Source: Dehalococcoides mccartyi
GTDB taxonomy: Bacteria > Chloroflexota > Dehalococcoidia > GIF9 > DYGU01
Assembly: GCA_020724525.1 (NCBI GenBank)
Contig: DYGU01000006.1
Span: 13,210 to 77,209 of the forward strand
Direction of reading: 5' to 3'
DNA: 64,000 nucleotides
Part shown: piece by piece, positions 4,633 through 48,169 of the stretch
Position numbering within the stretch: the stretch's first letter is position 1
Layout of the letters: each line of letters opens with the position of its first letter
Notes under the pieces: model-generated
Told to the model about the DNA's origin: nothing
The model's input: the letters and a program-made list of their open reading frames with translations, nothing else
The model's database searches: none
Made by a program: the position numbers and the translations under genes

Positions 4633-4640
4633 GAGATTGA

Positions 4641-4700
4641 TTACTAATGCTTATCCACCATTCTGAACAAAGCGGAGAAAACCTTTTTGACAGATAAGCC
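4641..4700 (+). repeat. partial copy (5' half) of the intergenic repeat family A
   Basis: ttactaatgcttatccaccattctgaacaaagcggagaaaacc matches the ttaccaatgcttatccaccatcctg...aacaaggcagagaaaccc segment of repeat copies at 20024, 20766 and 26262 (reverse). It lies in the infA-rpmJ spacer. Confidence 0.5.
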
Positions 4701-19838: not shown

Positions 19839-20023
19839 AGCTATCTTTAATAATACTACAATTTTGTGGAGACTGGCAAAGGAGCCCCAGGTCTTCAGGC
19901 AATAAATTAAGGTAGTCAAGTGGTAATAAGAAAGATTGTTTATAAACTCCAACTTTTATATCTGAAGTTCATTTTACCTAAATACAAAATAAGGCATTGC
20001 TCAACACTCTCGTAGTAATAAGA

Positions 20024-20132
20024 GGTTGTTTACCAACGCTTGTCCACCACCCTGAACAAGGCAGAGAAACCCTCACCTACCCTCTCCCTTGAAGGGAGAG
20101 GGATAAGGTGAGGGTGACAAAATAAACACTCT
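20024..20132 (+). repeat. intergenic repeat family A, full copy (~110 bp) with a central 10-bp-stem hairpin
   Basis: The left part is gttgtttaccaacgcttgtccaccaccctgaacaaggcagagaaaccc. The centre is cctctcccttGaagggagagg, a perfect 10+10 palindrome. The right part is ataaggtgagggtgacaaaataaacactctc. Related copies lie at 20766, 26262 (reverse), 34267 (reverse), 4641 and 38270. Confidence 0.7.
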
Positions 20133-20530
20133 CAATAAACCGTTTTTAGCTGTCTTTTGAGTCCTTCCTGGCATTCGCGGCGAGATAGACTGGGAGTCCA
20201 GTTGCGACAGGCTGCCGGTCGGAAAGGATAAATGGTGCGTACGGCCTTTTCCTCCTGGTATTTCAGGAAAACACAGGCGTCACCCTGGCGACGTAAGAGA
20301 TAAGTCCCTGGCTTCAGGGGATATTCCTGGATATATTTCTGGTAGAATTCAAGTACAGGCATATTTAAGGCTCGGGCTATAGTGGCAATTTCACCTTCAT
20401 CAATGGGTGGTTGCCATTTAGTGCAGCAAGTGCCGCAGCAAAGGCAGGGAATAACTTGAGGCTCAATTCCCCCACGCTGCAAATCATATTCTATTTCTTT
20501 CCAGCTTATAGTGCGTAAAATTACTTTCAT
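20132..20530 (-). CDS. YkgJ-family Fe-S/zinc-chelating protein (CxxCxxCC motif)
   Basis: CLCCGTCC...C motif. The start is placed at the internal Met MKVILRT. Confidence 0.55.
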   Translation of the reverse strand: MKVILRTISWKEIEYDLQRGGIEPQVIPCLCCGTCCTKWQPPIDEGEIATIARALNMPVLEFYQKYIQEYPLKPGTYLLRRQGDACVFLKYQEEKAVRTIYPFRPAACRNWTPSLSRRECQEGLKRQLKTVY

Positions 20531-20543
20531 GGCTTTTGAGTGG

Positions 20544-20741
20544 TTAACTTTTTCTGTAAACCTCCACAAATCTCTTTAGGGAGCGGTCATAAGTCCTTTC
20601 TATTTCCGGAGGGAATAAGCAGCCGGGTAGTTGATTATATTTCCAGTGGTAAGAGAGACAGTCGCAGCACTTTCCCTTTCGTTCACAGGGCTCGTAAGTG
20701 CAGGTGCATTTAGCCTTGTTTATTTCCAACTGGCATTCCAT
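20544..20741 (-). CDS. small cysteine-rich protein (8 Cys in 65 aa)
   Basis: MECQLEINKAKCTCTYEPCERKGKCCDCLSYHWKY. It sits immediately upstream of, and is co-oriented with, the YkgJ-like gene. Confidence 0.4.
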   Translation of the reverse strand: MECQLEINKAKCTCTYEPCERKGKCCDCLSYHWKYNQLPGCLFPPEIERTYDRSLKRFVEVYRKS

Positions 20742-20765
20742 ACTTAACCTCCTGTATGAGCGATT

Positions 20766-20906
20766 GATTACCAATGCTTATCCACCATCCTGGGGGGTCA
20801 CCCTCCCTCTGACTCCCTCCCTTGACGGGAGGGAGTATCATTCCCCCCTACCCTCTCCCTTGAAGGGAGAGGAATAAGGTGAGGATGACAAAATAAAGAC
20901 TCTCAA
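20766..20906 (+). repeat. intergenic repeat family A copy with a duplicated hairpin module
   Basis: ttaccaatgcttatccaccatcctg is followed by ctccctcccttgacgggagggag, a second hairpin. That is followed by ccctctcccttgaagggagaggaataaggtgaggatgacaaaataaagactctc. Confidence 0.7.
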
Positions 20907-23881: not shown

Positions 23882-25699
23882 TCAATCATTTTTTGGATCT
23901 GGGTCCCCACATCGAAGATTTGGTGCGGTGATAATTAAGCTAACAATTTTATTCTCCCGAATATCTACCAGTCCTGACTCGCAGATACGGAGAAAAGGTA
24001 TTGCAGCAGTGGTTAGGATAGTTAAAGTCAGGTGAGCATCGGGAAAAGGCATACTTAAATCCCTGGCTTTTTGCTGTATTTCAGCCATTTTGTCAACGAT
24101 TGCTTCCATGGGTAAATCTGATACCCCCCCACCTATAGGTAAAGGCAATTCTGCCAGGATTTTCCCCTCGGCATATATTACTATCCCACCTTGTAACTCG
24201 AAAATCCTATTTACGGCTTGTGCCATGTCCCCCTCATTGGTGCCGACAACAATTATTCCGGGTAGATCCCAGGTAGCACTGGAGGCAAAGGCACCTTTAG
24301 TCATTTTAAACCCTTTGATAAAACCGGTAAACATCTTTCCCCGTCCATCAAATCGGTCAATAACGGCTACTTTGATGAGGTCCCGTCTAATGTCCGACTC
24401 CAGCCGACTTTGCCGGGGGACAATAGTTACTTGTTCTTCCCTGGTTACTAAGTCGGTTACTTGATTTATAACTCTTACTGTAACTGGTGTCTCCTTTTCT
24501 TGGGTAAGGATAGTGAAATCGGCTGGTTCGAGCTTTCTGAGGAGGCGAATAGTCTGTCTAAAGCTTCTGGGAAAGGCGATTTTTTGGGGAGGGACTAAGG
24601 TTTTTTGATTTTGAGCCACAATTTTGCCGTTACTGATGACTAATTCGGGACGGATAGTTTTCAGATTAGGAATAATGACTATATCAGCCAGTTTGCCGGG
24701 AGCGATCCCCCCCACAAGGGTATCCAGAGAGAAATGTTCGGCGGCATTTATAGTCACCATTTGTATAGCTATAAGGGGGTCAAAGCCGAGGTCAATGGCT
24801 TTCTGGACAATTTGGTCCATATATCCTTCCTTTAGTAGGGCTCCAGGGCTAATGCCGTCACTAACTAATATGAGACGCCTAAAATCTATGGGTTCTTTTT
24901 TTATTTTAGCGATGGTTGACAGGTCCTTACGGACAGCTCCTTCCCTGACCATAACATAAATCCCCAGCCTCAGTCTGTCTATAACTTCGTCGGCGGTTAT
25001 TGGCTCGTGACAAGATGATACCCCAGTAGCCAGGTAGGATATGAGCTTGTCGTTTCTGGCACCGGCGGTGTGTCCTTCGGCTATTTTCCCAATAGCTAAC
25101 GTCTCGACTATGAGGCTTATTACTCTTTCCTCTTTTTTCACCACCGACAGCCAATAACTTTCTCCCAAACCGACAACCCTGTCTTTTTTGAGAAATTTTC
25201 GCAAAGCCTGAGGTGATAAAGCATATTTACCTGTCTCTGGGCTGATAGTAACCGCAGGCGGCACAGTAACAAAGATTTTCACAGGTTGGTTGTCAAAAGC
25301 TTTAAGATAAGGTAGTAAGGCGGAATAGCCCAGGACGGTGACTGGTTCTATGCCTTCAGTGATTACTGTAGTAGTGCCGGTTTTCAGGGCATGTTTCACA
25401 AATTCAGCTACATTAAATAACCAGAGGATGTGAGTGTGGGCATCGATAAGACCGGGAATAATTGTTTTTCCTTGAGCCTCAATAATTTTAGTTTCTGGTC
25501 CGATAGTATGGGACACATCCTTACCTACATAGGCTATCCTTTCCCCCTTAGTAGCTATGGAGTAGCCGGGCATTATTTCTCGGGCATACACATTAACCAC
25601 ATCCCCACCCAGAACCACCATATCGGCTTTTATTTCGCCTAAAGCTGTGTCCATTAACCTTTTTATCTGCTCCGAGTTCATAGAGTAAGGTAGAGCCAT
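23882..25699 (-). CDS. ade: adenine deaminase
   Basis: 605 aa amidohydrolase. The GLIDAHTHI metal-binding motif is present and the length fits Ade. Confidence 0.8.
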   Translation of the reverse strand: MALPYSMNSEQIKRLMDTALGEIKADMVVLGGDVVNVYAREIMPGYSIATKGERIAYVGKDVSHTIGPETKIIEAQGKTIIPGLIDAHTHILWLFNVAEFVKHALKTGTTTVITEGIEPVTVLGYSALLPYLKAFDNQPVKIFVTVPPAVTISPETGKYALSPQALRKFLKKDRVVGLGESYWLSVVKKEERVISLIVETLAIGKIAEGHTAGARNDKLISYLATGVSSCHEPITADEVIDRLRLGIYVMVREGAVRKDLSTIAKIKKEPIDFRRLILVSDGISPGALLKEGYMDQIVQKAIDLGFDPLIAIQMVTINAAEHFSLDTLVGGIAPGKLADIVIIPNLKTIRPELVISNGKIVAQNQKTLVPPQKIAFPRSFRQTIRLLRKLEPADFTILTQEKETPVTVRVINQVTDLVTREEQVTIVPRQSRLESDIRRDLIKVAVIDRFDGRGKMFTGFIKGFKMTKGAFASSATWDLPGIIVVGTNEGDMAQAVNRIFELQGGIVIYAEGKILAELPLPIGGGVSDLPMEAIVDKMAEIQQKARDLSMPFPDAHLTLTILTTAAIPFLRICESGLVDIRENKIVSLIITAPNLRCGDPDPKND

Positions 25700-25769
25700 T
25701 CAAAACCTCCTCGTCTTGTAATTAAGCACGCTTACTCAACAAGATATTGTTCAGCAATTGTCCAGTTGT

Positions 25770-25850
25770 CATTGCGAGCGAAGGACACCCCACAAAAGTC
25801 GAAACCTTCCCTGCGGGTTGACGAGAGTGAATACATCAATGGAGAGAACA
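25770..25850. repeat. partial copy of intergenic repeat family B (gtcattgcgag... element)
   Basis: tgtcattgcgagcgaaggacaccccacaaaagtcgaaacc shares the gtcattgcgag and ccacaaaa modules with the 38118..38300 element. Confidence 0.45.
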
Positions 25851-25878
25851 GTGAAAAATTGGTTTAGCTACCAAAGTT

Positions 25879-26163
25879 TTAGCTCTTTTGGCTCATATTT
25901 GAAACAATCCTGGCTGTCTTTTCTGGGATTCTTTCAATCAGCTCGGCAATTTTGGCAGTCCTTTCATCCATTCTTTCAAGCAGTTTTACTACTTCCTGAT
26001 GTCTCAATTCTGCTCTTTCATCCATTTTGGCAATTCTTTCATCCAGGTGTAACATCCTTTCATCCATTTTGGCAATAGCTTGCCTCATCAATTTTCCATT
26101 ATTCCAGGCTAAATAAGCAATCACAATTGAAAGCAAGGTAATAGCAAACCCGAAGATTTCCAT
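25879..26163 (-). CDS. small single-pass membrane protein with coiled-coil repeats (paralog 2 of 4)
   Basis: 94 aa with an N-terminal TM helix (FGFAITLLSIVIAYLAW). It is followed by AKMDER-type repeats (QAIAKMDERMLHLDERIAKMDERAELRHQEVVKLLERMDERTAKIAELIERI). Confidence 0.5.
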   Translation of the reverse strand: MEIFGFAITLLSIVIAYLAWNNGKLMRQAIAKMDERMLHLDERIAKMDERAELRHQEVVKLLERMDERTAKIAELIERIPEKTARIVSNMSQKS

Positions 26164-26261
26164 TACATCCCCCTTTGTCTCTAATGTTAAATTTTTAGCT
26201 CCTATATCTTAACAATATCTTTATTTCAAGATTTGGTCAAGAGCCGAGGACATATTGAAAG

Positions 26262-26340
26262 ATTGTTTATTTTGTCACCCTTCCTCAGGAAGGGTTTCTC
26301 CGCCTTGTTCAGGATGGTGGATAAGCATTGGTAAACAACC
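26262..26340 (-). repeat. intergenic repeat family A copy (reverse orientation, variant hairpin ccttcctcaggaagg)
   Basis: ttgtttattttgtcaccc...gggtttctccgccttgttcaggatggtggataagcattggtaaacaa is the reverse complement of the 20024 copy, with a substituted palindrome. Confidence 0.65.
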
Positions 26341-26737
26341 GAGCCTTGTGGGCGAAGAATCTCTATAATTGAATTCCACGACGAAGATAGACTAATACCA
26401 CCTGAAAATTGTATTATAAATTTTGGGTCACTTGAAAACGGAGTTTTATACAGAATCAAAAGGGTTAGTTTAAAAATGTCGTCGCGAGGCTAAAGCCTCG
26501 CCCGAAGCGACCCTAAAGGGTTGCGCTACAAAAACTTGGGGGTGAAAGGCGTTTAGGGTGCTTAAAAATAAACCTGAAATCAAGATTAAACAACCCGCAG
26601 ATATTAAGGGGATTAGCTCCAACTCAGCTAACCCCCTTGGTAGGTTATTCTCCTAATATTTCAAGAAGCACCCTTTTTGCGCAGGGCTTGGCGCCGAGCT
26701 GATAACTTTGCCAGTTTCTGCTTGATAGAGTCTTCCA

Positions 26738-27343
26738 TTATTTGGTGGAACTCACCTCAGCCAGGGCATAATGAGGAGGAAGTATCCCTGTAGGACATAG
26801 AGAGAAGCACTCCCTACACCCAGTGCATTCCTTGCGGGCAATTTTGGGGAAAAACACTACCTCCCGTTGTGTTCCTCTTCCAATGAAACCAATAGCGTGC
26901 TTCTTCTTTATCTCAGCGCAGTAACGCACACATAACCCGCAAAGAATGCAGAAAGTTGGCTCCGTCTCAAACCTTGTTTTTATTTCATATCCTATTACAA
27001 ATTCCCTAATTGTTCGGACGCCAGTTATATCATACCTCATCCCGTACTCCCTTAAGGGTGCGATTCCAGGAGCACGAGCCCACATTAGCTCTAAAAGTAT
27101 CTTACGAATCTTGCTTAATCGATTAGTTTCTGTCTTTACTACAAGCCCATCTTCAGCTGGATAACAGTAAGAAGCTACTAATCGGGAGTGTTGTTCCCGA
27201 ACTATTTCCACAGTGCACAATCGGCACGCACCATAGGGAGCCAATTTTTCATGATGGCAGAGGGTAGGAATGTCAATTCCAACAGTTCGTGCTGCCTCAA
27301 GAAGAGTCATCCCTTCCTTAGCTTTGACTTTTTTTCCTGTCAA
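26738..27343 (-). CDS. 2Fe-2S plus multi-4Fe-4S ferredoxin-domain protein (NuoG/HndC N-terminal-module-like, no catalytic domain)
   Basis: 201 aa. It carries the Cys cluster C-x10-C-x2-C (2Fe-2S), a HxxxC..C His-ligated 4Fe-4S, and the CILCGLCVRYC and CTGCRECFSLCP ferredoxin motifs. It is the last gene of the NuoE/NuoF-like operon. Confidence 0.7.
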   Translation of the reverse strand: MTGKKVKAKEGMTLLEAARTVGIDIPTLCHHEKLAPYGACRLCTVEIVREQHSRLVASYCYPAEDGLVVKTETNRLSKIRKILLELMWARAPGIAPLREYGMRYDITGVRTIREFVIGYEIKTRFETEPTFCILCGLCVRYCAEIKKKHAIGFIGRGTQREVVFFPKIARKECTGCRECFSLCPTGILPPHYALAEVSSTK

Positions 27344-27369
27344 TAATTAAATTGATTGTGCTCATTTTT

Positions 27370-29290
27370 CTACCCTCGCTTTCGTATTACTTGTGTGCCT
27401 AATGGAACTGGCTCAGGTATTTTTGTACTTGGAAGCTTAACTACGGCACCAAAGCGGGGAGGACAAACTTCAAGGCAGGTACCACAGTTGGTACATTTAT
27501 TCTGGTCTATAATATGGACTAAGCTCTTACCACCATTAATAGCCTCCACTGGACAGTCCCGGAAGCAAATAAGGCAAGCCTGGCACTGGCTGGGTTCAAT
27601 ATAGTAGGCTATCAACCCTTTACAAACGCCAGCTGGACAATACTTTTCTCTTATGTGTGCTTCATACTCGTCTCTAAAGTATTTAATTGAAGTCAGCACA
27701 GGATTAGCGGCTGTAGTCCCTAAAGCGCAAAGGGAAGCGTCGGTGAGCACCTCGGCAATCTCTTCCAGTAAACCAATATCTTCTTCTTTCCCTTCTCCCC
27801 GGCGAATCCTATCTAAAACTTTGAGCATCTGGTATATTCCTTCCCGACAGGGGACACACTTACCACAAGACTCCTCGGTAAGAAAATTTAAGAAGTAACG
27901 TGCCGTATCCACCATGCAAGTGTCCTCATCCATTACTATCATCCCACCAGAACCCGTCATGGAGCCGAGTTTGGAGAGTTCATCAAAGTCAACCGGGGTA
28001 TCCAGGAATTGTTCTGGGATTACTCCACCGGAAGGTCCACCTGTTTGAACTGCTTTAAACTTTTTGCCTTCACGAATTCCGCCACCGATTTTGTAAATGA
28101 TATCTCTCAGGGTTATCCCCATCGGCACTTCTACAAGTCCGGTATTATTTACTTTGCCTACAAGTGAGAATATCTTTGTTCCTTTACTTCCCTCGGTGCC
28201 AAGGGACCTAAACCAATCAGCACCGTTGTTAATAATCAGCGGGACATTTGCCCAGGTTTCCACATTATTGAGGTTGGAAGGCTTTTCCCAAATTCCCTTG
28301 ACTTGCAGTGCGGATGTATTTTGGTCTCGGCTCGCCTACTTTTCCTTCTATCGCTGTCATGAGTGCGCTTGATTCACCAGAGACAAAGGCTCCAGCACCC
28401 CGATGAATAGTGACCTTAAAGTTAAAGCCGGAGCCGAGAATATCTTCTCCTAAAAACCCATATTCTTCAGCTTGCTTTAGGGCAATTTCTAAGTTTTCCA
28501 CAGCCAGAGGATACTCTTGCCGCACATAAACGAATCCCTGGTGCGAACCAATAGCATAAGCTCCGATGATTAAGCCCTCAAGCACACTGTGTGGGTTTTC
28601 CTCCATAAGGCCCCGATCCATATAAGCACCAGGGTCTCCTTCATCACAGTTAACAATAACATATTTAGGTTCTCCTGGAGCCTTGCGGCAGGTTTTCCAT
28701 TTCCTTCCGGCAGGGAACCCTCCGCCACCTCTACCCCTAAGGTCCGCCCTGTCCACTTCGGCTAAAACCTCCTCCGGGGTCATCTCAAAGAGGGCTTTGG
28801 TTAATGCCCGATATCCTCCAAGAGCAATGTAGTCCTCTATACTCTTCGGATTAAGTTTAGAATTATTAGCAAAAATAATCTGGGTCTGATATTTATAAAA
28901 GGGGATTTCGTGTTTATAAACTATCTTTTCGCCCGTGGTAGGGTCAATATAAAGCAGTCTGTCACTAACCTCCTCTTTAGCTGTCCTGTCCACGATTTCT
29001 GGTATATCCTCTGGTTTCACATTGCAGTAACCTGTCCCTTTGGGGGAAACTACGACTATCGGTTCTTTTTCACAAAATCCATGGCAGCCAGTGCTCCTAA
29101 AATCTATCTTTTACTCCAAGCCTTTCTTTGTGAGTTCTTCTATAAAAGCAGCGGCAACTTCCTGGCTCCCATAGGCAAGGCAACCAGTGCCACTACAGAG
29201 GGAAATGCAAAGTTTGTTCGGGTCCCTTTTTAATAAAATATCCTTTCTAAATTCTTCAAGCTCTTTTGGTGATGAAAACCGCTTAGTCAC
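27370..29290 (-). pseudogene. NuoF/HymB-like NAD(P)H-binding 51-kDa-type subunit, interrupted by an in-frame TAA and a +1 frameshift
   Basis: Hand translation from GTG 29290 gives a thioredoxin-like 2Fe-2S domain (CISLCSGTGCLAYGS ... TGCHGFCEKEP). An in-frame TAA splits it at 29111..29113. The FMN/NADH domain follows (GRGGGGFPAGRKWK). The reading frame then shifts by +1 near 28285..28300: ...[12 protein letters not shown] is in one frame and [18 protein letters not shown] in the next. It continues to the [10 protein letters not shown] and [12 protein letters not shown] Fe-S motifs. The track shows this as two ORFs, 28265..29020 and 27370..28263. Confidence 0.7.
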
Positions 29291-29767
29291 TTATTCCTCC
29301 TGACCATAGCTTTGGAGAATCTCTCCTACTTTGGAAACCGAGAGTTTGCCGTGATACTTCCTACCCACCACCATCACCGGTCCCAAAGCACAACAACCAA
29401 GACAATTGACGCTTTTCAAACTGAATTTCAGGTCCGGTGTTGTACCACCTGGAGATATGCCAAGAAATTGCTGGGCTCGTTCCAGTATATGCGGCGAACC
29501 ACGAACATGACACGCGGTACCCAAGCAGACAGTAACTTGATGGCGCCCTCGTGGTATCAGGCTAAAAGCTTTGTAGAAGGTAGCTATATGATAAATTTGG
29601 GTCAGAGGAACACTAAGCCTCTCGCTGAAGTGTATTAGAGCATCTTTAGACAACCACCGGTTTTCTCGTTGAACATGGAGGAGCACTTGAATTAGGAACG
29701 CCTTGTCAGCTCCATATTTATTTATAATTTCATCAATTTTGGTAAGCTCTAACACCATTTCCATCAC
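29291..29767 (-). CDS. NuoE/HymA-like thioredoxin-fold 2Fe-2S subunit (24-kDa-type)
   Basis: 158 aa with the CLGTACHVRG...CLGCCALGP Cys pattern of NuoE. It sits directly upstream of the nuoF-like gene. Confidence 0.85.
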   Translation of the reverse strand: MMEMVLELTKIDEIINKYGADKAFLIQVLLHVQRENRWLSKDALIHFSERLSVPLTQIYHIATFYKAFSLIPRGRHQVTVCLGTACHVRGSPHILERAQQFLGISPGGTTPDLKFSLKSVNCLGCCALGPVMVVGRKYHGKLSVSKVGEILQSYGQEE

Positions 29768-29779
29768 CTCTTTAGCTCT

Positions 29780-30766
29780 TTAAAACCCTTTCTGTCCAGT
29801 AACTCCACCACCAGCTTTGCCCCTTTTTTTGGCTAAAGCCTCATGTCTGGCAACTAACTTGGCTTGGCGTTTAGCTAACTTCACCCAAAAAGCATCTTCC
29901 ATCGTTTGACCGAATTCGCAGTTGGCACAGTGGAAAGCTCGGGAGCAGAGACGGTAAGAGATGTCACCTTTAAGAGCATAGCGGCAAAGTCTCTGGTTTC
30001 CGGGCAATGCCTTTAGCCTTTCTAAGGCAGCGGCAATTTCTGGTGACTCACCGGCAGTCTGCATCTGCTGGTCAAATTCGCAGGTAAGACAATCGTAATC
30101 CTTAGTGCATACCCGGTAAGAAACAACACCCATCTTCATCCAGACGCAGGGCTTAGCGACTTCCGTAGCCGTTACTTCAATTGCTGGTGCTGCCGCTTCT
30201 GTTTTTGCCTTCCGGATCCAGACCCTCGCCGCCAGGTTACCTGGTGCCATCTCCAGTATCCTCTCAAATTCCGCTATTGCTGCCGAATAGTCCCCCTCCT
30301 TGAAGAAGTCCTGACCTAAGGACAGGTACGTGGCAATCTCCTCTTCCAGTTTGCTCACTTCATCTTTCTTCTCCTCCATAATCACTTCTGGGGCAGCCAT
30401 TGGCTTAGCTTCAAGGACTTCCCTGATTAGTTGCTCCAGAGACTCAGGGGCAAATGGTTTAACCAGATAATCTATAGCTCCAGCTTTGGCGGCTTCTACC
30501 GCTGTTTCCACAGACGGATAAGCAGTAATAATGATTGCCTTTAAGGTTGGAATTTGCTCTTTAGCTTCCTTTAAGACCTGGATACCGTCTTTGCCAGGAA
30601 GTTTAAGGTCAAGGACGGCAACACCGCACTCCTGTTTTTTAATTATTTCCAGAGCCTGTTCTCCATCCTCAACAGCAACCACTTCCTGCCCCTCACTCGT
30701 TAGCCAGTCTCTTAATGACTCCCTGACGATGGTTTCATCTTCCACTAACAAAATGGGTTTTGTCAT
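29780..30766 (-). CDS. response regulator: REC domain + helical/TPR-like linker + tandem C-x5-C-x2-C Cys-rich output domain
   Basis: The N-terminal REC has the phospho-acceptor context (VLDLKLPGKDG). The C-terminal half contains two repeats: YRVCTKDYDCLTCEFDQQMQ and YRLCSRAFHCANCEFGQTMED. There is no HTH. It is the first gene of the operon with the nuoE/nuoF-like genes, downstream of a sigma-54-type promoter. Confidence 0.7.
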   Translation of the reverse strand: MTKPILLVEDETIVRESLRDWLTSEGQEVVAVEDGEQALEIIKKQECGVAVLDLKLPGKDGIQVLKEAKEQIPTLKAIIITAYPSVETAVEAAKAGAIDYLVKPFAPESLEQLIREVLEAKPMAAPEVIMEEKKDEVSKLEEEIATYLSLGQDFFKEGDYSAAIAEFERILEMAPGNLAARVWIRKAKTEAAAPAIEVTATEVAKPCVWMKMGVVSYRVCTKDYDCLTCEFDQQMQTAGESPEIAAALERLKALPGNQRLCRYALKGDISYRLCSRAFHCANCEFGQTMEDAFWVKLAKRQAKLVARHEALAKKRGKAGGGVTGQKGF

Positions 30767-30805
30767 TTCTATTACCTCCTCCTTTTTGTCTTCACCTTGA
30801 ATAGT

Positions 30806-30821
30806 CGCAATTTTCGTGCCA
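30806..30821 (-). promoter_or_regulatory. candidate sigma-54 (-24/-12) promoter TGGCAC-N5-TTGC
   Basis: The minus strand reads TTGGCACGAAAATTGCG. It has GG at -24, GC at -12 and an exact 5-nt spacer. The Cys-rich response regulator start codon lies ~40 nt downstream. rpoN and an NtrC-type activator are encoded immediately upstream. Confidence 0.5.
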
Positions 30822-30825
30822 AAAC

Positions 30826-30860
30826 AAGAAACTACCCTGATAACTTCAGGGTAGTTTCTT
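30826..30860 (-). terminator. perfect 15-bp inverted repeat (terminator of the NtrC-type gene and/or activator binding site)
   Basis: aagaaactaccctga-taact-tcagggtagtttctt. On the minus strand it is followed by GTTTT, which runs into the -24 element. Confidence 0.45.
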
Positions 30861-30924
30861 GTTTGTGTCGATTCGCTTTTATGGCTGATGAAGACTACAT
30901 CATAAGTATAAAGAAATTAAACAG

Positions 30925-32286
30925 TCATTTGTCTATTTTATTTACAACAAGGTCATGTGTTTTTACCTTGTTATAGAGGGTCATTCGAGTGATGCCTAAT
31001 ATTTTTGCCGCCTGGCTCAGGTTTCCTTTAGTTTGTCTAAGTACACTCAGGATGTGGCTCTTTTCCAATTCTTTGAGGCTCTTGTCACTGCTCACAGGAG
31101 CTAAAGGTAGATTTTGGTAAGCCAGGTCAGCTAAAGTTACCAGGCTATCTTTAGCTAAAATAACAGCTCTTTCAATGGCATTTTCCAATTCTCGGACATT
31201 GCCCGGCCAGTGGTATTTCAGAAGGAATTCTTTAGCTTCGGGGGCAAAGCCAGCTATTTCTTTTTGATTTTCCAGAGAGAACTTTTTTAGAAAGTGCTCC
31301 GCCAGAAGGGGAATATCTTCCCTTCTTTCTCTTAAAGGTGGTAAATCTATAGTTACCACATTCAGCCGATAATAAAGGTCTTCTCGGAATTGACCTTGCG
31401 CCACCGCTTTTTTCAAGTCTTTGTTAGTAGCTGAGATAATACGCACATTTACTTTTATAGGCTCATTGCCACCCACCCGAGTGAATTCTTTTTCCTCAGT
31501 GACTCTCAGTAAATGAACCTGGGTGTTAGGGCTTATGTCTCCTATTTCGTCGAGAAACAAAGTGCCCTTATTAGCATATTCAAACTTACCCTTTTTTTGG
31601 GCAATAGCACCAGTGAAAGAACCTTTTTCGTGCCCAAAAAGCTCACTTCCTAAAAGAGTCTCTGAAAGAGCGGCACAGCTTATGGCAACAAAAGGCTTGT
31701 CCTTGCGGGGACTCAAATTATGGACCGCTCGAGCAATAAGTTCCTTACCACTGCCGCTTTCTCCAGTAATCAAGACAGTAGCGTTGCTCTTAGCTATTAC
31801 CTTCACCATTTCAAAAATTTGTTGCATTCGATTACTTTTGGCGATGATATTTTCAAAACGATAGCGGTCTTCCAGTTTCTGGCGCAAGGAGATATTTTCC
31901 TTTATTAGCTTCTGGTGCTCCACCAATTTTTTGATGACCAATTCTACTCTCTCGGGACAGAAAGGCTTCTCAATATAGTCGTAAGCACCCTCTTTGATAG
32001 CAGCAATAGCTGTAGCTATACTGCCATAAGCGGTAATGATAATTATTGGAATATCAGGTGAGAGTTCCTTTACTCTTTTGGTTAACTCGATTCCGTCCAT
32101 CCCCGGCATTACCAAGTCAGCAATAATAATGTCTGGAGTTTCTCTTTGAGCCAGTTGTAAGGCTTCACTCCCATTAGAAGCCGTGGAGACGCTGTAGCCG
32201 ATGTCTTTCAGCCACTCCCAGAGGGACTCGCGGATACTGGCTTCGTCATCAACGATTAAAATCCTGGCTGTTTCCTTCAATGGCAA
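30925..32286 (-). CDS. sigma-54-dependent transcriptional response regulator (NtrC family: REC + AAA+ + Fis-type HTH)
   Basis: 453 aa. The REC domain has DDEASIRESL...D. The AAA+ domain has Walker A GESGSGKE, the GAFTGA-type motif GSFTGA, and an ESELFGHEKG loop. The C-terminal HTH is QAAKILGITRMTLYNKVK. Confidence 0.85.
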   Translation of the reverse strand: MPLKETARILIVDDEASIRESLWEWLKDIGYSVSTASNGSEALQLAQRETPDIIIADLVMPGMDGIELTKRVKELSPDIPIIIITAYGSIATAIAAIKEGAYDYIEKPFCPERVELVIKKLVEHQKLIKENISLRQKLEDRYRFENIIAKSNRMQQIFEMVKVIAKSNATVLITGESGSGKELIARAVHNLSPRKDKPFVAISCAALSETLLGSELFGHEKGSFTGAIAQKKGKFEYANKGTLFLDEIGDISPNTQVHLLRVTEEKEFTRVGGNEPIKVNVRIISATNKDLKKAVAQGQFREDLYYRLNVVTIDLPPLRERREDIPLLAEHFLKKFSLENQKEIAGFAPEAKEFLLKYHWPGNVRELENAIERAVILAKDSLVTLADLAYQNLPLAPVSSDKSLKELEKSHILSVLRQTKGNLSQAAKILGITRMTLYNKVKTHDLVVNKIDK

Positions 32287-34238
32287 GCCTCCAGATAAAC
32301 AGTGAAAGTGGTTCCCTTACCTACCTCGCTATCAACCTTGATTCTACCCTTGTGCCTTTGGATAATGCCATGCACTACTGCCAGCCCCAAGCCAACCCCT
32401 TTCTCCCTCTCTTTGGTAGTGAAAAAAGGAGTGAACAATCGGCGCCTATTTTCTTTAGGGATACCACAGCCAGTGTCGGCTACATCTACTTTAACCCACT
32501 CTTGCTTCTTGCCACCGACTCCCTCTTCAGATATTATCTCTGTCTGCAAGGTTAATCTCCCCCCTTGAGGCATAGCCTGGACAGCATTAAGGATGAGATT
32601 GGTAAAAACCTGACAGAGCTGGTCAAAATCAGCCGTGACCAGACAGCCCTCACCACGGAATTTCTTAACTATTTCCACATTTTGCAATTGAGCTTGATGG
32701 CTGACCAAAGACAAAGCTTGGTCAATAACTTGGTTAGCATCAACTACTTTCAATCTTGGCTCAGACTGTCGGGCAAAATCGAGCAGATTTCGAATTATTC
32801 CGGAACTGCGGCTGACTTCAGCTTCTATTTTTGATAGATAACTCAAGGCTTCTTCTTTAGGTAATCCATCACCACCTAATCTTTTAGACAGGAGTCGGGC
32901 ATAAACTAAAACCCCAGTTAAGGGATTATTTAGTTCGTGAGCAATAGCTGCGGCTAATTGTCCCAGAGAAGTTAATTTTTCCGCCTGAATAAGCTGTTCC
33001 TGAGTTGCCTTTAGGCGCTTGACGACAAAGGGCCAGCACATTTCATTCTCGGCTAAGCCGCGGTAGATAGCAATAGCTTTTTCCCGGCAGGTTTTATAGC
33101 CGCAGGCACCACAGTTGAGTTCATCCTCGGGCTTGGTCTTGTCGGTCAAACTCAAAACACCTCGGATTTCTTCTTCAGTGGGGTAGGGGAGGGAGATATA
33201 GCGATTGGTAAACCGTCGCCTTAAATTTAGATCGCCATATCTTATTAAGTCTTTTTCCGTCTGCTCTGGGTCGGTTTCTTTCAAGGTGTATTCAGTAATA
33301 ATTTGTTTTTTCTTAAAATAATTTAATTCGCTTCTAATTGACGGACCGCTGACACAACCTTCACACATAAAAAGCTCAGCGAAGTTAACTCTAATGTCCC
33401 CTTTGTCAATCTCGTGAATAATTTCCAGCACCCTTTCGGCACCTTCCCCCACTACAGCCTCTTTATCCAAAGGATCGGTGGAAACTCCGATTGCTTTACA
33501 AAATCCACCAGAAATAGCACATAATCGCCCCAAATTTGGTTTGGGACCGAAAAAGGGAGTCTCCCCTAAACTGGCCGGGTCGATAGCTTTTTGGGCAAGA
33601 AGTTCTTCAAGTTCATCAAAGGTTAAAACAGCGTCAATTACACCACCTACCTTCTCATCATCCCGCTCTGCCCTCTTGGCAACACTGGGGGCGATAAAGA
33701 CCACCTTTGTCTCAGGTGGGTAGTATTTCTTAATCAACCTACCCATAGCAATCATGGGGGGCACAATAGGCGCTAAGTTATCAATTAACTGGGGGTAATA
33801 TTTCTCAATATAATAGACTACAGCCGGACATTGAGCGCTAATAATTGGTTTTTGCTTGCTTGTCTTTATTAGTTTTCGGTATTCCTGAATAATGAGGTCA
33901 GCACCAAAGGCTCCTTCTACTACTTGGTTGAACCCCAGTTCTAAGAGAGCAGTTACCAGTTGCCTTGGGCGGATTTCGGGAAAGGCTACCGGGAAGGAAT
34001 AATCAAGGCAAGCGATAGGTGCCGGGGATTTACTCAGTAAAACCCTTGTCGCTCCGATATCGCTTTCTATTTGCTTGGCTTTCTGGCTACAGACTCGGAC
34101 ACAGTTACCACAAGCAATACACCGTTCCTTCATCACTTCAGCCAAGCCCTCTTCCACTTTAATGGCATTAGCTGGACAGCTACGGATACAAGCATAGCAA
34201 CCCTTGCAATTGTCTTTATTAGTGAAGATGACCGCCAT
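32277..34238 (-). CDS. sensor histidine kinase with N-terminal 2x[4Fe-4S] ferredoxin + degenerate [FeFe]-hydrogenase H-cluster-like domain (HydS-like sensory module)
   Basis: 653 aa. The N-terminus has CKGCYACIRSCP and CIACGNCVRVC ferredoxin motifs. A ~300 aa region follows with hydrogenase-like L1/L2/L3 remnants (SAQCPAVV, IAPSVAKRAE with Cys replaced by Ser, ELFMCEGCVSGP). HisKA (AAAIAHELNNPLT) and HATPase_c (GCGIPKENRRRLFTPFFTTK...GLGL) domains follow. It overlaps the NtrC-type gene by 10 nt. Confidence 0.8.
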   Translation of the reverse strand: MAVIFTNKDNCKGCYACIRSCPANAIKVEEGLAEVMKERCIACGNCVRVCSQKAKQIESDIGATRVLLSKSPAPIACLDYSFPVAFPEIRPRQLVTALLELGFNQVVEGAFGADLIIQEYRKLIKTSKQKPIISAQCPAVVYYIEKYYPQLIDNLAPIVPPMIAMGRLIKKYYPPETKVVFIAPSVAKRAERDDEKVGGVIDAVLTFDELEELLAQKAIDPASLGETPFFGPKPNLGRLCAISGGFCKAIGVSTDPLDKEAVVGEGAERVLEIIHEIDKGDIRVNFAELFMCEGCVSGPSIRSELNYFKKKQIITEYTLKETDPEQTEKDLIRYGDLNLRRRFTNRYISLPYPTEEEIRGVLSLTDKTKPEDELNCGACGYKTCREKAIAIYRGLAENEMCWPFVVKRLKATQEQLIQAEKLTSLGQLAAAIAHELNNPLTGVLVYARLLSKRLGGDGLPKEEALSYLSKIEAEVSRSSGIIRNLLDFARQSEPRLKVVDANQVIDQALSLVSHQAQLQNVEIVKKFRGEGCLVTADFDQLCQVFTNLILNAVQAMPQGGRLTLQTEIISEEGVGGKKQEWVKVDVADTGCGIPKENRRRLFTPFFTTKEREKGVGLGLAVVHGIIQRHKGRIKVDSEVGKGTTFTVYLEACH

Positions 34239-34266
34239 TTTCGCTAACCTTTCTAAAGTTATTAAA

Positions 34267-34340
34267 GAGAGTGTTTATTTTGTCACCCTCACCTTATTCC
34301 TCTCCCTTCAAGGGAGAGGGTAGGTGAGCGTTTCTCCACT
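34267..34340 (-). repeat. intergenic repeat family A copy (reverse orientation, truncated)
   Basis: gagagtgtttattttgtcaccctcaccttattcctctcccttcaagggagagggtaggtgagcg is the reverse complement of the hairpin core of the 20024 and 20766 copies. It lies between rpoN and the kinase gene. Confidence 0.65.
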
Positions 34341-34345
34341 TAAGA

Positions 34346-35443
34346 TTATTTATTTGTCATTGCCAAGAGTCTCCTTTGTCGTGAGGATGGGATTTTTAGC
34401 TCTTTCCTGAGACTGGCTATAGTACGTCGGGACAGATATACGCCAAATTTCCTCTCCAGACTAACCTTTATTTTCTGGTCACTAAGAGGTTTTGCCTCTT
34501 GTTCAAGAATTTGCTTGAGCAACTCCTTTCGGAACTTCTTAGGGTTTGGGAAAAAGTCTTTAAGTGCTCTTTCGCCCCAGGGAGTTTCAAGACTTTTATT
34601 AGCGATAACTCGGCTGATAGTGCTTGGGGTTAAGCCAATTTTGGATGCCAGTTCCTTTTGACTGAAAGGCAACAACGCTTTTGGGTTGCCCGATTCAAAA
34701 AATGGAGTTTGCTTTTCAACAATGTTCTGTATTACCTGGTGTAAACTATTTTTCCGGCTATTTATTAACTCTAACTTTCGTAAGAGCTGCCTTATCTCTT
34801 TGACTTCGGTATTGTTGAAAACTCCGTCGTGGAGTAACTGTTCCAGCTTCATATAATCAACAACAAATTTACCTCGGGCATAAGCTGGGGAGAAGTAAGC
34901 AACAGATAACCCCTCAGTTCCCCTTTCTATTGCGGCAACTTTGGAATAATGTTTTCCTTTGTCTGAGATAGAAGAAGGGTGGTAGAACTCGGTGGCAATG
35001 GAAAATTCGTCAATAAGACTGTTTATTTTAGACACTTCTGAAACTTCCAGCTGACACTGGTGGGCAATTTCCTCAACAGTAATCCCGGGCTCCGGGTATA
35101 AGAAATATTGTTTGAAATTGTCTATACCCAGATTTCTGATTAGACCAACCAGTTCCTCTTTATTGGCGATCAAAGATTCCACATCAACCGAGCTTGGGGC
35201 GGCGACAATTTCCTCTTTAAGTTCATAAAAACGGCGAGAAAGATTGGCTTTTGGGAATCGTTGATAGTGAATTACCTTCTCTTGTTCCCGGAGGCGCTTA
35301 AATAGTGAGCTCTTTTCTACCCCAAAAATTAAATACTGGAACTCCACTTCCGACATTTCCAGCAAATTGGCCTGCTCTATTCGGAGAAAAAGTTTGAGTT
35401 CTTGTCTTGTTTCCAGAGATTGGGTTATGTTTGGATTTACCAC
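34346..35443 (-). CDS. rpoN: RNA polymerase sigma-54 factor (short form)
   Basis: 365 aa. The C-terminal RpoN box (YLSRRTIASLRKELKIPSSRQRR) and the HTH (ASKIGLTPSTISRVIANKS) are present. The Leu/Gln-rich N-terminal region I is short. The protein is shorter than typical RpoN (450-500 aa). Confidence 0.8.
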   Translation of the reverse strand: MVNPNITQSLETRQELKLFLRIEQANLLEMSEVEFQYLIFGVEKSSLFKRLREQEKVIHYQRFPKANLSRRFYELKEEIVAAPSSVDVESLIANKEELVGLIRNLGIDNFKQYFLYPEPGITVEEIAHQCQLEVSEVSKINSLIDEFSIATEFYHPSSISDKGKHYSKVAAIERGTEGLSVAYFSPAYARGKFVVDYMKLEQLLHDGVFNNTEVKEIRQLLRKLELINSRKNSLHQVIQNIVEKQTPFFESGNPKALLPFSQKELASKIGLTPSTISRVIANKSLETPWGERALKDFFPNPKKFRKELLKQILEQEAKPLSDQKIKVSLERKFGVYLSRRTIASLRKELKIPSSRQRRLLAMTNK

Positions 35444-35514: not shown

Positions 35515-35817
35515 CTATCCCCTCTGCAAGGATCGAGCTATCATCTCCTGACCTTCCTGGAGCCTTGTAAATCCTTCCTTGAGGTGCCTGGCTATTGACT
35601 GTTGCCCCTCACTAATCTCTTTTAGCCCGTCCATAAGCACTTTCTGTCCTTCCCTAATCTCTCTTAGCCCGTCCATAAGCGCTCTTTGCCCGTCAACAAG
35701 CGCTTTTTGCCCGTCCATAAGCAACCTCATATTGCGTCCATTTGCTCTCCAGATATAAGCAAGGATTACACCGAGAAAAGCCAGGGCTGCTCCTATCATT
35801 CCTGTGGCTATTTCCAT
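35515..35817 (-). CDS. small single-pass membrane protein with coiled-coil repeats (paralog 3 of 4)
   Basis: 100 aa with the TM helix MIGAALAFLGVILAYIW. It carries LMDGQ-type decapeptide repeats (LLMDGQKALVDGQRALMDGLREIREGQKVLMDGLKEISEGQQ). Confidence 0.5.
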   Translation of the reverse strand: MEIATGMIGAALAFLGVILAYIWRANGRNMRLLMDGQKALVDGQRALMDGLREIREGQKVLMDGLKEISEGQQSIARHLKEGFTRLQEGQEMIARSLQRG

Positions 35818-36006: not shown

Positions 36007-36408
36007 TTAACCCTTTAAAGGACCAAGGGCTCTCACCTTTTCCGTCATTTCATTTACGACAGAGACAAAGCGGTCACCTTCTGAAGCTGACACCCAGTCC
36101 AATCTCAGTCTTTCCTCTTCAATCCCCATCTGGACTAACATTTTCTTTAGTAATGGTATACGCCGTATAGTCTTATAATTACCTTCGGTATAATGACAAT
36201 CTCCGGGGTGACAACCAAGAGCCAAAACTCCATTAGCACCCAACTAGAAAGCCTTAAGGATAAAGGTAAGCTCCACTCTGCCACTACACATTACTCTTAT
36301 TGTTCTGACATTATGGGCACACTTCATCCTGGCTGTCCCAGCCAGGTCTGCTCCCCGGTAGGAACACCAGTTACACAGGGAACCGATAATCTTAGGTTTA
36401 AAGCTCAT
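36007..36408 (-). pseudogene. MvhD-like hydrogenase/heterodisulfide-reductase-associated Fe-S subunit with an in-frame TAG
   Basis: Hand translation from ATG 36408 gives [54 protein letters not shown]. An in-frame TAG (36244..36246) follows. It then continues LGANGVLALGCHPGDCHYTEGNYKTIRR..., which is the MvhD signature. The track shows only the distal 78 aa. Confidence 0.65.
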
Positions 36409-36431: not shown

Positions 36432-36790
36432 CCTAAATCTTTTCAATATATGACCTCAGGTCACCCAGATACCCCTCCATTTCGTCGAAGCTTAAAGTGC
36501 CATCGTAGTAACCTTGTATGTGAAAGACATCTCTGAGAAATAAATAATGCCATCTAAGCTCTCTGTCAGCATATTTGAAAACCAAGTATCTTCTCCCCCT
36601 ATCGCCTGAGGTAGCTGCTCTTCTTTGATTCCCTTCTTAATCAAAAGACTATGAGTAGCTTCTATGGTGGAGAACCAACTTTTGGCACAAGCATCCCTTA
36701 AAAGTGTGCCGTCATTTTTCTGTCTTGCCCTGTCAAACTCCTCAAATGCCTTTTCGTAGAGCCTTCTTGCTTCTTTCAGATGATTTTCTG
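36432..36790 (-). pseudogene. small helical (HEPN-like?) gene remnant with a frameshift and no canonical start
   Basis: The minus strand reads ...LSSENHLKEARRLYEKAFEEFDRARQKNDGTLLRDACAKSWFSTIEATHSLLIKKGIKEEQLPQAIGG. It then continues in the +1 frame (RRYLVFKYADRELRWHYLFLRDVFHIQGYYDGTLSFDEMEGYLGDLRSYIEKI). A strong AAGGAGAT Shine-Dalgarno-like sequence lies upstream but no ATG/GTG/TTG start follows. The family assignment is uncertain. Confidence 0.3.
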
Positions 36791-36793
36791 AAC

Positions 36794-37933
36794 TCAGATT
36801 ATCTCCTTAACATCTTTAATTTCAATAACATCAGCTTTATCCATAGTAAGCACGCTGTCATCAAAATTGAGGATACAGTAAGGGTAGGCTGTGGCTAAAA
36901 CTTCAGCTCCAACATCTATTGCCTGCTCTAACCTTATGTCCGAAAATCTTTCACCTTTTTTGGTTTCCTGCCAGATTCTGCCGCCACCACCACAGCAAAG
37001 GCTATTTTCTCGGCTATCCGGCATTTCCAGAAAATCCAGACCTAGAATGCTCTGTAGCAATTGCCGCGGGGTGTCGTATATATTGTTATGCCGCCCTAAG
37101 TAGCACGGGTCATGATAAGCTACCTTTTTCTTAATTTCCTTCCTAAACTTTAATCTTCCTTCTTCAAGTAGTTGCCTCAGGTACTGAGTGTAATGAAGGG
37201 TCTCAAAATTACTGCCAAGCTTAGGGTATTCATTTTTGAAGGTATGATAGCAATGGGGAAAGCTAACCACGACTGTCTTCATACCTTTTCCCCTAAAAGT
37301 AACGATGTTGCTCCTGGCTAACTTCTCAAAAAGCTCTTCATTCCCAGCTTTCCTAACGCTTTCGCCACAGCAGAGCTCTTCCGAGCCTAAAATACCAAAA
37401 TCTACCTCGGCTTTCTTAAAGATGTTAGCTAAAGAATGAGACATTCTTTTTACCTTAGGGTCATAAGCAGACACACAGCACGAAAAATATAAAAGCTCCT
37501 TATCTGGAGAAAACCTTTCTACACCCAAATCTTTCGCCCAATCGGCTCGCCTTTCGGCGGCTTCTCCCATAGGATTGCCCACAGCAGAGATATTTTCCAT
37601 AGTAAGTCTCAGTGAATCAGGCACATAACCTACCCCAAATCCTACTGGAATTCTACGCACAGCCCTCATGACATCTATTATCTCCACCCCTCGGGGACAC
37701 CGTTCAACACAAGCCCGACAGGTGACACAGAGCCACCAGATTTCGTCTTCAAAGTTAACCAGCCCTAATTATGTCTGACGCACCATCCGGCGAACAATGA
37801 AACTTCTCACCTGATTCCAGGGACAAATCCCACTACAGAGACCACATTGATAACACAGTTTAAAAGCTTCACCACCGGCTTCTTTTATGAAATCCAGAGT
37901 TTCTCGAGATGGGCTTACTGCCTGTACAGCCAT
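36794..37933 (-). pseudogene. HdrD/GlcF-like Fe-S oxidoreductase (4Fe-4S ferredoxin + two CCG domains) with an in-frame TAA
   Basis: Hand translation from ATG 37933 gives MAVQAVSPSRETLDFIKEAGGEAFKLCYQCGLCSGICPWNQVRSFIVRRMVRQT. An in-frame TAA (37769..37771) follows, then LGLVNFEDEIWWLCVTCRACVERCPRGVEIIDVMRAVRR... The 297 aa track ORF follows, carrying CCG motifs (FSCCVSAYDPKV, LCCGES, HDPCYLGRHN, LCCGGGG). Confidence 0.65.
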
Positions 37934-38117: not shown

Positions 38118-38300
38118 CCATTCTGTCATTGCGAGAGGCGTTAGCCCCGAAGCAATCCCAAGAGATTGCCGCGCTTCTTACACCCAGCCGAATCCTAGAT
38201 TCGGCTGGGAACCCGGTGTCGCCACAAAATCATAGATTTTGTGGGGTGTTCTTCGCTCGCAATGACGGGTAAGCATTAGTAAACATCTCTCTTGCAATGA
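38118..38300. repeat. intergenic repeat family B: MITE-like element with terminal inverted repeats (gtcattgcgag / ctcgcaatgac) and two internal hairpins
   Basis: gtcattgcgagaggcg...cagccgaatcCTAgattcggctg...ccacaaaatcATAgattttgtgg...ctcgcaatgac is followed by taagcattagtaaaca, a family A fragment. Partial relatives lie at 25770 and 26475. Confidence 0.6.
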
Positions 38301-42614: not shown

Positions 42615-43157
42615 TCATCTCAGAGTAAGTGGGATGGGGGATACGGCTCCTGAATTCAGGTCGGTAATCAAGAAGGCAAACCTGAACTTTAGAGTCAAGT
42701 TCACAGATTCTTTCTGCCCCACGAACCCTTGGACAATTCTTTTTGGAATATACTCCTTGGGCAATTCAGTTTTGATTTTCATCCCCTCTCTTACTGGGGT
42801 GATACAAGCTGGTCTTACTTGGTTATCAATTTCTATAGCGCAACTCCAGCAACCACCAACTTGGCATGGAGCGAAAAAGTCCGGCTTGTTCGGAGCCTCT
42901 GAGATAGCCCACCCCGCTTCTATCAGGGCTTCTTTGACACTGATGCGTTCCGGCACCCTTATACTTTGACCATCAATCTCAATAGTCACTTCTCTATCTC
43001 TGGGCTCCTCAATCATGTCTATGGCTTGGTTAGGGCAAGCTAAGGCGCAGGCACCACAGCCAATACAGCCATTTTCTTTGCCCGAGCAAGCTACTATTTC
43101 CCGGCAAGTACCACAGTCAAGACATTTTTTTAACTTATACTCAGCTATATAAGACAC
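42615..43157 (-). CDS. ferredoxin-like protein: 2x[4Fe-4S] + plant-type [2Fe-2S] domain
   Basis: CLDCGTCREIVAC and CIGCGACALACP motifs are followed by C-x4-C-x2-C...C (APCQVGGCWSCA...ACITP). The C-terminal 35 aa look non-protein-like, so the 3' end is uncertain. Confidence 0.6.
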   Translation of the reverse strand: MSYIAEYKLKKCLDCGTCREIVACSGKENGCIGCGACALACPNQAIDMIEEPRDREVTIEIDGQSIRVPERISVKEALIEAGWAISEAPNKPDFFAPCQVGGCWSCAIEIDNQVRPACITPVREGMKIKTELPKEYIPKRIVQGFVGQKESVNLTLKFRFAFLITDLNSGAVSPIPLTLR

Positions 43158-45149: not shown

Positions 45150-45347
45150 TTATACACTTTTTGCCTTAGCCAAGCGGTTCTTCACCAGCTCTACCACCGC
45201 CTGGTAGACTTGAAGTTGCTCCTCTTCGGTAAGCCCCAAAGCTTCAAAGACAACTTTATCCAGCTGCCTCCGGTCTGACAACACAATGCACAAGCAAGAA
45301 AACTGAACGAAGTAGCGGAGTGTTCGGGGTGGGGAAGATGTAGGCAT
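45150..45347 (-). pseudogene. C-terminal remnant of an N6-adenine DNA methyltransferase-like gene
   Basis: ...VVFEALGLTEEEQLQVYQAVVELVKNRLAKAKSV resembles the C-terminal helix of type IIG/type I MTases. There is no upstream catalytic domain. Confidence 0.25.
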
Positions 45348-45869: not shown

Positions 45870-46523
45870 CTCTTGGCAATATAACCTTTAATGTCTTCAG
45901 GCTTTATCATACCCAGTTCGGTGATTCTTCCGGTTATGAGCTGGGGTGGGATTTGGTCAAAGCCGGGTTCTAATTCGGGGGATTTACCCTGGTAGCTCTG
46001 AGTATTTAGTTTAGCTGTTTCACAGAGGCAGTAGACAGGGATGGAAGCCCTTCTGGCGGCTGAGGCGAGGATATAAGTGGGGATGCCGTTAATAATAGAG
46101 CCATCACTGAGGATGCTATCGGCACCAACCAGGACTCTGGTTGTTTGAAGATATGTTTTCCTATATAGTTATCTTCGATGAGTTCAGAGCTGATAGTGTG
46201 CCGGACTAATTCTTCAGTAGTTAATTTGCCGTAGACTATGCCTTGGGAGACCTGGACTGGGCAACAATAACCTGGAATTCTTTACCTTCCTGTTTGGCTA
46301 TCTAGAGAGCCTGGCAGACGGGGGAACTGTAGCTGCAGGTCATTAGAATGTCGGATGGCTGGACAATGCTGGCACCGTGTTGAGCTACTTTCAGATGAGC
46401 TTCTGTTGATGAGTTAATAATCTCTTTGCCTTTAGTCTGGGCGAAGACTTTCAGGGAATTAAGGTCAGGCGACTCTTGGGAATAGGTGATAGCCTTGATT
46501 CTTGTGGTGATTTTGTGGTTCAT
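45870..46523 (-). pseudogene. eIF-2B alpha/beta/delta-family (MtnA/R15P-isomerase paralog) pseudogene, N-terminally truncated with an in-frame TAG and two frameshifts
   Basis: Hand translation gives ...ILMTCSYSSPVCQAL, then a TAG, then IAKQEGKEFQVIVAQSRSPKA. A frame change follows (QGIVYGKLTTEELVRHTISSELIEDNYIGKHIF). Another frame change follows (VLVGADSILSDGSIINGIPTYILASAARRASIPVYCLCETAKL...ITELGMIKPEDI). All conserved eIF-2B-family blocks are present but they fall in three frames. Confidence 0.6.
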
Positions 46524-46530
46524 AAGGTGG

Positions 46531-48068: not shown

Positions 48069-48169
48069 TGTGGTTGGAGGCGTATTTGGTCACACAAATA
48101 CCATAGCGCCCGAATTTGTGAACATTGACTTTCACCCTGTTATCTGGTAATTTAGCCACAAAGTAAATA

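Follow-up and report, generated by a model that had tools for sequence, protein, structure and literature searches.

The closest described counterparts of the gene considered here are HydB, the B subunit of electron-bifurcating modules of the HydABC/Bfu type, and NuoF of complex I. Proteins of this HydB/HndC/NuoF type are expected to be encoded by a single uninterrupted frame of ~640 aa. In HydABC operons, the flavoprotein gene is accompanied by genes for a NuoE-like and a short NuoG-N-terminal-like subunit, and a core FMN/N3 module is common to the HydB type and to NuoF of complex I. The stretch of Dehalococcoidia DNA analysed here (64 kb in all, hereafter the window) contains on its minus strand, from 29290 down to 27370, one reading frame of this type, which amounts to 639 aa once reconstructed. 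Its length, its domain order and its two kinds of neighbours are those of HydABC systems. In contrast to these, however, both a stop codon and a frameshift interrupt the gene, its A-type partner measures only ~208 aa and is frameshifted as well, and the window has neither a catalytic hydrogenase nor a formate dehydrogenase subunit. Compared with complex I NuoF, it has extra Fe-S domains at both ends and no nuoA-N genes nearby; neither the gene calls nor Pfam revealed any nuoA-D or nuoH-N gene in the 64-kb window. The gene is best read, with a probability of roughly 0.88, as a genuine HydB-type pseudogene, recently inactivated amid partner genes that appear to be decaying too, in one clonal Dehalococcoidia lineage. 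The features on which this reading is based, and others in the window, are listed in Table 1.

Table 1. Coordinates of the flavoprotein locus and of other features in the window, with the evidence for each assignment.
Feature	Position	Strand	Evidence
HydB/HndC/NuoF-type (Bfu B-subunit) flavoprotein pseudogene; domain order Trx-like 2Fe-2S, FMN/NADH (GRGGGGFP), SLBB, N3 4Fe-4S, C-terminal 2x[4Fe-4S]	27370..29290	-	Translations, Pfam, P0001 alignment, HydB structures
In-frame TAA, codon 60 (nonsense)	29111..29113	-	Orthologue DNA and homologue alignment
One extra A (GCA-A-GTC), +1 frame shift	28303..28304	-	DNA compared with intact orthologue L004:10001-11929; homologue alignment
NuoE/HydC-type 2Fe-2S subunit gene, intact	29291..29767	-	Pfam 2Fe-2S_thioredx 1-144/145, E 1e-47
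NuoG-N-terminal/HydA/HoxU-like Fe-S gene (fer2), frameshifted	26738..27365	-	Three-frame translation against the 209-aa L004 orthologue; Pfam Fer2_4, Fer4_Nqo3
Perfect sigma-54 -24/-12 consensus (TGGCACGAAAATTGC)	30807..30821	-	Consensus match in the intergenic gap preceding the response-regulator gene
Response regulator, intact	29780..30766	-	Pfam on JGI gene calls, NCBIfam
Sigma-54 activator, intact	30925..32286	-	Pfam on JGI gene calls, NCBIfam, L004 orthologue
Sensory [FeFe]-hydrogenase-like domain fused to histidine kinase, intact	32277..34238	-	Pfam, NCBIfam, L004 orthologue
Sigma54_DBD-domain protein, intact	34346..35443	-	Pfam, NCBIfam, L004 orthologue
FlpD/MvhD, in-frame TAG 36244..36246	36007..36408	-	Merged translation, Pfam FlpD 1-123/123, E 1e-50
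DUF5618-like gene, probable frameshift at G5 run near 36600	36433..36790	-	Weak profile match
HdrD-like Fe-S/CCG gene, in-frame TAA 37769..37771	36794..37933	-	Merged translation: Fer4_8, two CCG domains
TatD, frameshift near 42325	41771..~42524	-	Merged translation, Pfam TatD 1-253/253
IF-2B-family gene, only pieces left (46302..46625, 45887..46135)	45887..46625	-	Pfam
HepT toxin gene, in-frame TGA 61983..61985	61900..62160	-	Merged translation, Pfam HepT 1-120/120
REP/MITE-like repeats	4614..4690, 20003..20138, 20741..20906, 26285..26341, 34262..34336, 38237..38285, 25768..25797		
Small ORFs (94-100 aa)	35515..35817, 25879..26163, 56549..56833	-	No Pfam family in public gene calls
Two cobalamin riboswitches	48163..48287, 57144..57269	+	Rfam; 81% similar over 142 nt

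The identity of the flavoprotein is clear from its relatives. The reconstructed 639-aa protein gave 8000 homologue matches, of which the best 120 listed are nearly all 634-653 aa long, and the best of them (P0001, an intact protein of 642 aa) shows 78% identity across 100% of the query. Chance is thus not an issue as a source of this match, and the claim of the first-pass annotation that the locus encodes one continuous NuoF-type protein of ~640 aa is borne out. Pfam recognizes Complex1_51K (PF01512, E 1.8e-38) in the middle piece, where the frameshift truncates it at about position 131 of the 150 in the profile, and SLBB (PF10531), NADH_4Fe-4S (PF10589, E 6e-34) and Fer4 families, which account for the 2x[4Fe-4S] part, in the last one. 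In an alignment of 14 sequences, the four cysteines of the N-terminal 2Fe-2S domain (C32, C37, C69 and C73) are invariant, and the window protein retains both the GRGGGGFP motif and all invariant cluster-ligand cysteines; the conservation of motifs on either side of each lesion, already pointed out from the sequence, is therefore complete. The nearest solved structures are HydB chains (7t2r_B, entitled 'NiFe hydrogenase subunit B', E 1e-235; 8a6t_B, entitled 'Electron bifurcating hydrogenase subunit HydB'; 7q4v_B and 7p5h_B), with E values from 1e-235 to 1e-190 over residues ~5-618. The NuoF equivalog TIGR01959 scores 475.4 bits, which is below its cut-off of 558.65, with the core residues 142-546 aligned. 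Taken together, the HydB structure matches and the sub-threshold NuoF score point to the B subunit of a HydABC/Bfu-type system rather than to complex I. The expected uninterrupted frame is nevertheless lacking, since it is cut by a TAA at codon 60 and shifted by +1 after codon ~329, and the gene has thus been filed as a pseudogene of the family and not as a functional member.

Structural details of both lesions could be read from the comparison with an intact reference locus on contig DAOULY010000004.1 (L004) of a Dehalococcoidia-like MAG, GCA_034414595.1. This comparison with an orthologous locus, which had been proposed as a check, gave a plain answer: L004 carries CAA at the site of the TAA and has no extra A. 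The TAA separates C32/C37 from C69/C73, the two Cys pairs of the Trx-like 2Fe-2S domain, as first described and as now seen in both the translation and the 14-sequence alignment. Window and orthologue read GAG TAA AAG and GAG CAA AAG (Gln), respectively, so that one C-to-T change suffices. The second lesion moves the coding sequence from frame 1 to frame 2 after ...PRPKYIRTA. The first-pass annotation was right about a +1 frameshift in the FMN/NADH domain but placed it in the gggaattt run, whereas the orthologue DNA puts the extra A ~10 nt upstream, at 28303/28304. In the shift region the orthologue reads CGC ACT GCG GTC AAG GGA ATT TGG GA and the window CGC ACT GCA A GTC AAG GGA ATT TGG GA, that is, CGCACTGCG-GTCAAGGGAATTTGGGA as against CGCACTGCA-A-GTCAAGGGAATTTGGGA. 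Because GTCAAGGGAATTTGGGA is the same in both, the inserted base has to be an A at 28303 or 28304, and dropping it restores RTAVKGIW, which matches the orthologue, with V and K residues that occur in homologues. An indel inside the gggaattt run was considered and rejected: it would yield RTASQGIW, with S and Q at positions where none of 13 aligned homologues has them, and the run itself does not differ from that of the intact orthologue. The most likely site of the extra base is therefore 28303/28304. After the insertion, the original frame terminates at a TAA at 28265..28267. In the ORF listing, as in public gene calls, the gene appears as three pieces of 59, 251 and 297 aa. The GTG codons inside the gene (29020 and 28263) are not preceded by a Shine-Dalgarno sequence, in contrast to the starts of nuoE, nuoF and fer2.

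The immediate neighbours had both been described as intact. This holds for the nuoE-like gene, which is 72% identical to its L004 orthologue over its full length, but not for the ferredoxin-like gene on the other side. The latter would encode a product of ~208 aa with 2Fe-2S and 4Fe-4S clusters and without a catalytic domain, partially matching in NCBIfam the N-termini of FeFe_hydrog_A6 and HoxU. Three-frame translation against the orthologue reveals a frameshift at 27329..27338: the ATG at 27365 opens MSTINLIID, and the remainder (GKKVKAKEGMTLLEAA..., GKKVKAKEGMTLLEAARTVG...) is in a different frame, while the L004 orthologue is unbroken over the same region (MSEVNLTIDGKKVTAEEGMTLLEAA, MSEVNLTIDGKKVTAEEGMTLLEAARNVG). 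The shift region consists of a lone A at 27338, then GG, then an A7 run at 27329..27335, and such a run could in principle permit some rescue by (transcriptional) slippage. Only two perfect sigma-54 consensus matches were found in the window, one of them inside secY; the other one, ahead of the response-regulator gene, is likely the promoter of an operon comprising the response regulator, nuoE, nuoF and fer2.

The flavoprotein gene has counterparts in L004 for much of its neighbourhood. These include the nuoE-like gene, the nuoF-like gene (78%), the 209-aa Fe-S protein (67%) and FlpD (73%), as well as regulators, namely the sigma-54 activator (70%), the sensory hydrogenase-kinase (53%) and the Sigma54_DBD protein (56%). 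In contrast to the window, all shared genes are intact in L004, where the regulators are encoded by the other strand. The module adjoins there HdrA-like, HdrB/C-like, FlpD and [NiFe]-hydrogenase small-subunit genes; when these neighbours were searched for in the window by tblastn, only FlpD was found.

Lesions are not confined to the operon. In FlpD, which is 73% identical to the intact 150-aa L004 orthologue, a single alignment crosses the stop codon. In the HdrD-like gene, the TAA lies between two 4Fe-4S motifs, and Fer4_8 (3-68/68) spans it before two CCG domains follow. Of the ~65 genes in the 64 kb, at least 8 are broken or reduced to remnants, mainly redox and accessory genes; that the flavoprotein gene is only one among these had escaped the first-pass annotation. 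A dicodon coding-potential scan recovered the NuoF, HdrD-like and HepT stops and missed the FlpD one, and the list of lesions is thus a minimum. The ribosomal-protein/secY/rpoA and cobalamin salvage blocks (~25 kb) have complete domain sets and no lesions. Two further ORFs on the minus strand may be additional gene remnants: one of 180 aa (42615..43157) breaks off abruptly after a 4Fe-4S motif and a Fer2_4 domain, and one of 65 aa (45150..45347) presumably resembles the C-terminus of a restriction-modification methyltransferase.

Could the gene be intact in the organism, with both lesions introduced by sequencing or assembly? Metagenome assemblies can produce such lesions, and one indel falls in an AA dinucleotide. 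The window belongs to contig Ga0246236_1000096 of JGI 3300029893, and the 59-, 251- and 297-aa fragments occur at 100% nucleotide identity in that dataset, in the NCBI assembly GCA_020725225.1 and in Logan SRR13164376, SRR1587769 and SRR28264343; they are also present in NCBI and GEM. The exact 251-aa and 297-aa fragments are called on Logan contigs of SRR13164376 (on a contig in 6 samples), SRR1587769 and SRR28264343. When positions 25600..32400 of the window were compared by BLASTN with the Logan loci, identity was 100% with 0 gaps over 6108, 4553 and 1964 bases, the first two loci spanning all three operon lesions and the third one the two frameshifts. The TAA at 29111..29113 is identical in L005/L008 (SRR13164376) and in L006 (SRR1587769), and the extra A at 28303/28304 in L005, L006 and L007. 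Independent assemblies of different runs thus agree over 2-6.8 kb without a mismatch or a gap. One linked run, SRR7867194, has a contig with the regulator genes; according to its documentation, it consists of Illumina HiSeq data obtained from fracture fluid (BE326 BH2) at a depth of 1.34 km in the Beatrix gold mine, and it is the only one of the run and assembly accessions that could be traced in the literature to its site (Beatrix mine BE326 BH2). Moreover, the C-to-T change that creates the TAA is not a homopolymer error, and the lesions spare housekeeping genes, none being present in the ~25 kb that hold the ribosomal, secY and cobalamin genes, which argues against random error as the cause. 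As identical lesions recur in independent assemblies, sequencing error is considered to be excluded in practice, and an intact gene in the organism is extremely improbable. The 100%-identical assemblies are one clone, so the lesions are replicated technically, not evolutionarily. Minor alleles can also be masked in a metagenome consensus, and the pseudogene might coexist in the population with an intact allele dropped by the assemblers. A single allele is nevertheless common to every assembly; no intact allele above 78% identity was found among 5.8 billion protein clusters, nor was one assembled in any indexed dataset, the top match being at 78%. Such a polymorphism is accordingly very unlikely. 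Of the two outcomes envisaged at the start, recent inactivation, which was the one favoured, has thus prevailed over local error: the lesions stand at 100% nucleotide identity in independent assemblies, and the intact alleles known do not exceed 78%.

The perfect preservation of motifs flanking each lesion, together with an operon whose sigma-54 promoter and regulators look intact, could also suggest that the full-length protein is still made under regulation, by TAA readthrough and +1 ribosomal frameshifting. A programmed frameshift of the prfB type likewise changes frame by +1 within a conserved protein, but it differs from GCA-A-GTC, where neither a slippery codon nor an in-frame stop is present, where nothing resembles an SD-type stimulator, and which orthologues do not share. 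Neither lesion occurs in any intact homologue examined, and in a scan of GTDB genomes the relatives, at 70% identity or less and from many phyla, have uniformly intact homologues. At the nonsense site the next base after the TAA is an A, a context in which termination is strong, which argues against readthrough. Stop codons are used normally in the window, TAA, TAG and TGA ending 24, 16 and 9 of 49 confident genes, respectively, and the other broken genes are interrupted by all three stops and by frameshifts, as expected from random mutation. With normal stop usage, no slippery site and lesions unshared by orthologues, recoding is therefore very unlikely. Two related possibilities were rejected. 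Stop-codon reassignment does not fit, as all three codons terminate confident genes and all three occur among the in-frame stops of the window. Insertion of selenocysteine or pyrrolysine does not fit either: the nuoF stop is a TAA, Rfam detects only the two cobalamin riboswitches, and no tRNA gene was found in the 64-kb window. A last alternative is that the gene is functionally split, its 59-, 251- and 297-aa pieces being made separately and assembling into a working flavoprotein. Gene callers do predict three ORFs, and the stop of the 251-aa ORF lies 1 nt ahead of the GTG of the 297-aa ORF, which makes a coupled restart possible. Against this, the first start codon past the TAA lies beyond the second Cys pair and the 2Fe-2S site therefore cannot form, the frameshift cuts Complex1_51K at position 131/150 of the profile, and the internal GTG codons have no ribosome-binding sites. 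Split homologues are absent from the best 120 matches and from 80 related loci, where all are ~640 aa long. A working split flavoprotein is thus, like recoding, very improbable.

Other observations concern the surroundings of these genes. The intergenic repeats are short (30-75 nt), direct as well as inverted, with 87-97% identity and a REP/MITE-type look, and several of them flank the decaying redox cluster. Two of the three small ORFs combine an N-terminal hydrophobic segment with coiled-coil-like repeats (MDG/MDER), and the ORF at 35515..35817 (minus strand) holds a 21-nt tandem repeat (35603..35728). One of the cobalamin riboswitches precedes a FecCD/ABC transporter and cobalamin-salvage operon, the other one a periplasmic-binding-protein gene and a gene for a 1055-aa protein without clear family.

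Some insight into the age of the event was obtained from the conservation of the pseudogene itself. At otherwise invariant columns, the window protein deviates uniquely 9 times, and intact homologues do so 1-12 times. No gene of the cluster is better conserved than NuoF when compared with L004 (78%, against 53-73% for its neighbours); at this amino-acid identity, synonymous sites are saturated. With such a level of conservation, and with deviations within the intact range, the inactivation would therefore be recent relative to the divergence from L004. The absence of acceleration in this count fits a recent event; as a measure of constraint, it does not by itself prove loss of function. SecY is 73-76% identical to its counterparts in Dehalococcoidia/Chloroflexota, and other relatives reach 87%. 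The window is identical over kilobases to the contigs L001, L005-L008, L090 and L092, which suggests a single, very stable clone.

The following scenario can be proposed for the pseudogene. Its ancestral product would have bound FMN and NAD(P)H as the B subunit of an electron-bifurcating module of the HydABC/Bfu type, composed of NuoE-like, NuoF-like and short NuoG-N-terminal-like subunits. The CAA-to-TAA change at codon 60 and the one-base A insertion in the FMN domain would together abolish the full-length protein. As the adjacent Fe-S gene is frameshifted and, at a distance of ~7 kb, premature stops interrupt MvhD and the HdrD-like gene, the most economical reading would be that the whole pathway is under relaxed selection and decays piecemeal, while housekeeping genes stay intact. 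What is inferred in this scenario is the order of the events, the enzyme with which the module originally worked, and what caused the decay, either a need that had vanished or drift in a small population. The phenomenon is ordinary biology of a known kind, and only the density of pseudogenes is mildly unusual. A broader and more tentative possibility is that the nuoF-like pseudogene reflects gene decay which is unusually heavy and still under way in a free-living Dehalococcoidia clone of the deep subsurface.

In terms of metabolism, a working NADH-dependent bifurcating module of the HydABC/Bfu type should not be attributed to this MAG, nor should MvhD or the HdrD-like protein, despite its Pfam-bearing fragments. 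Regulators and a sigma-54 promoter that still look intact beside fresh pseudogenes provide a snapshot of pathway loss in progress, and the locus could be used for studying drift and relaxed selection in populations that grow very slowly. If heavy decay proved true genome-wide, it would offer a natural example of the drift-driven loss of an electron-bifurcating NADH/H2 module in a subsurface population that evolves extremely slowly.
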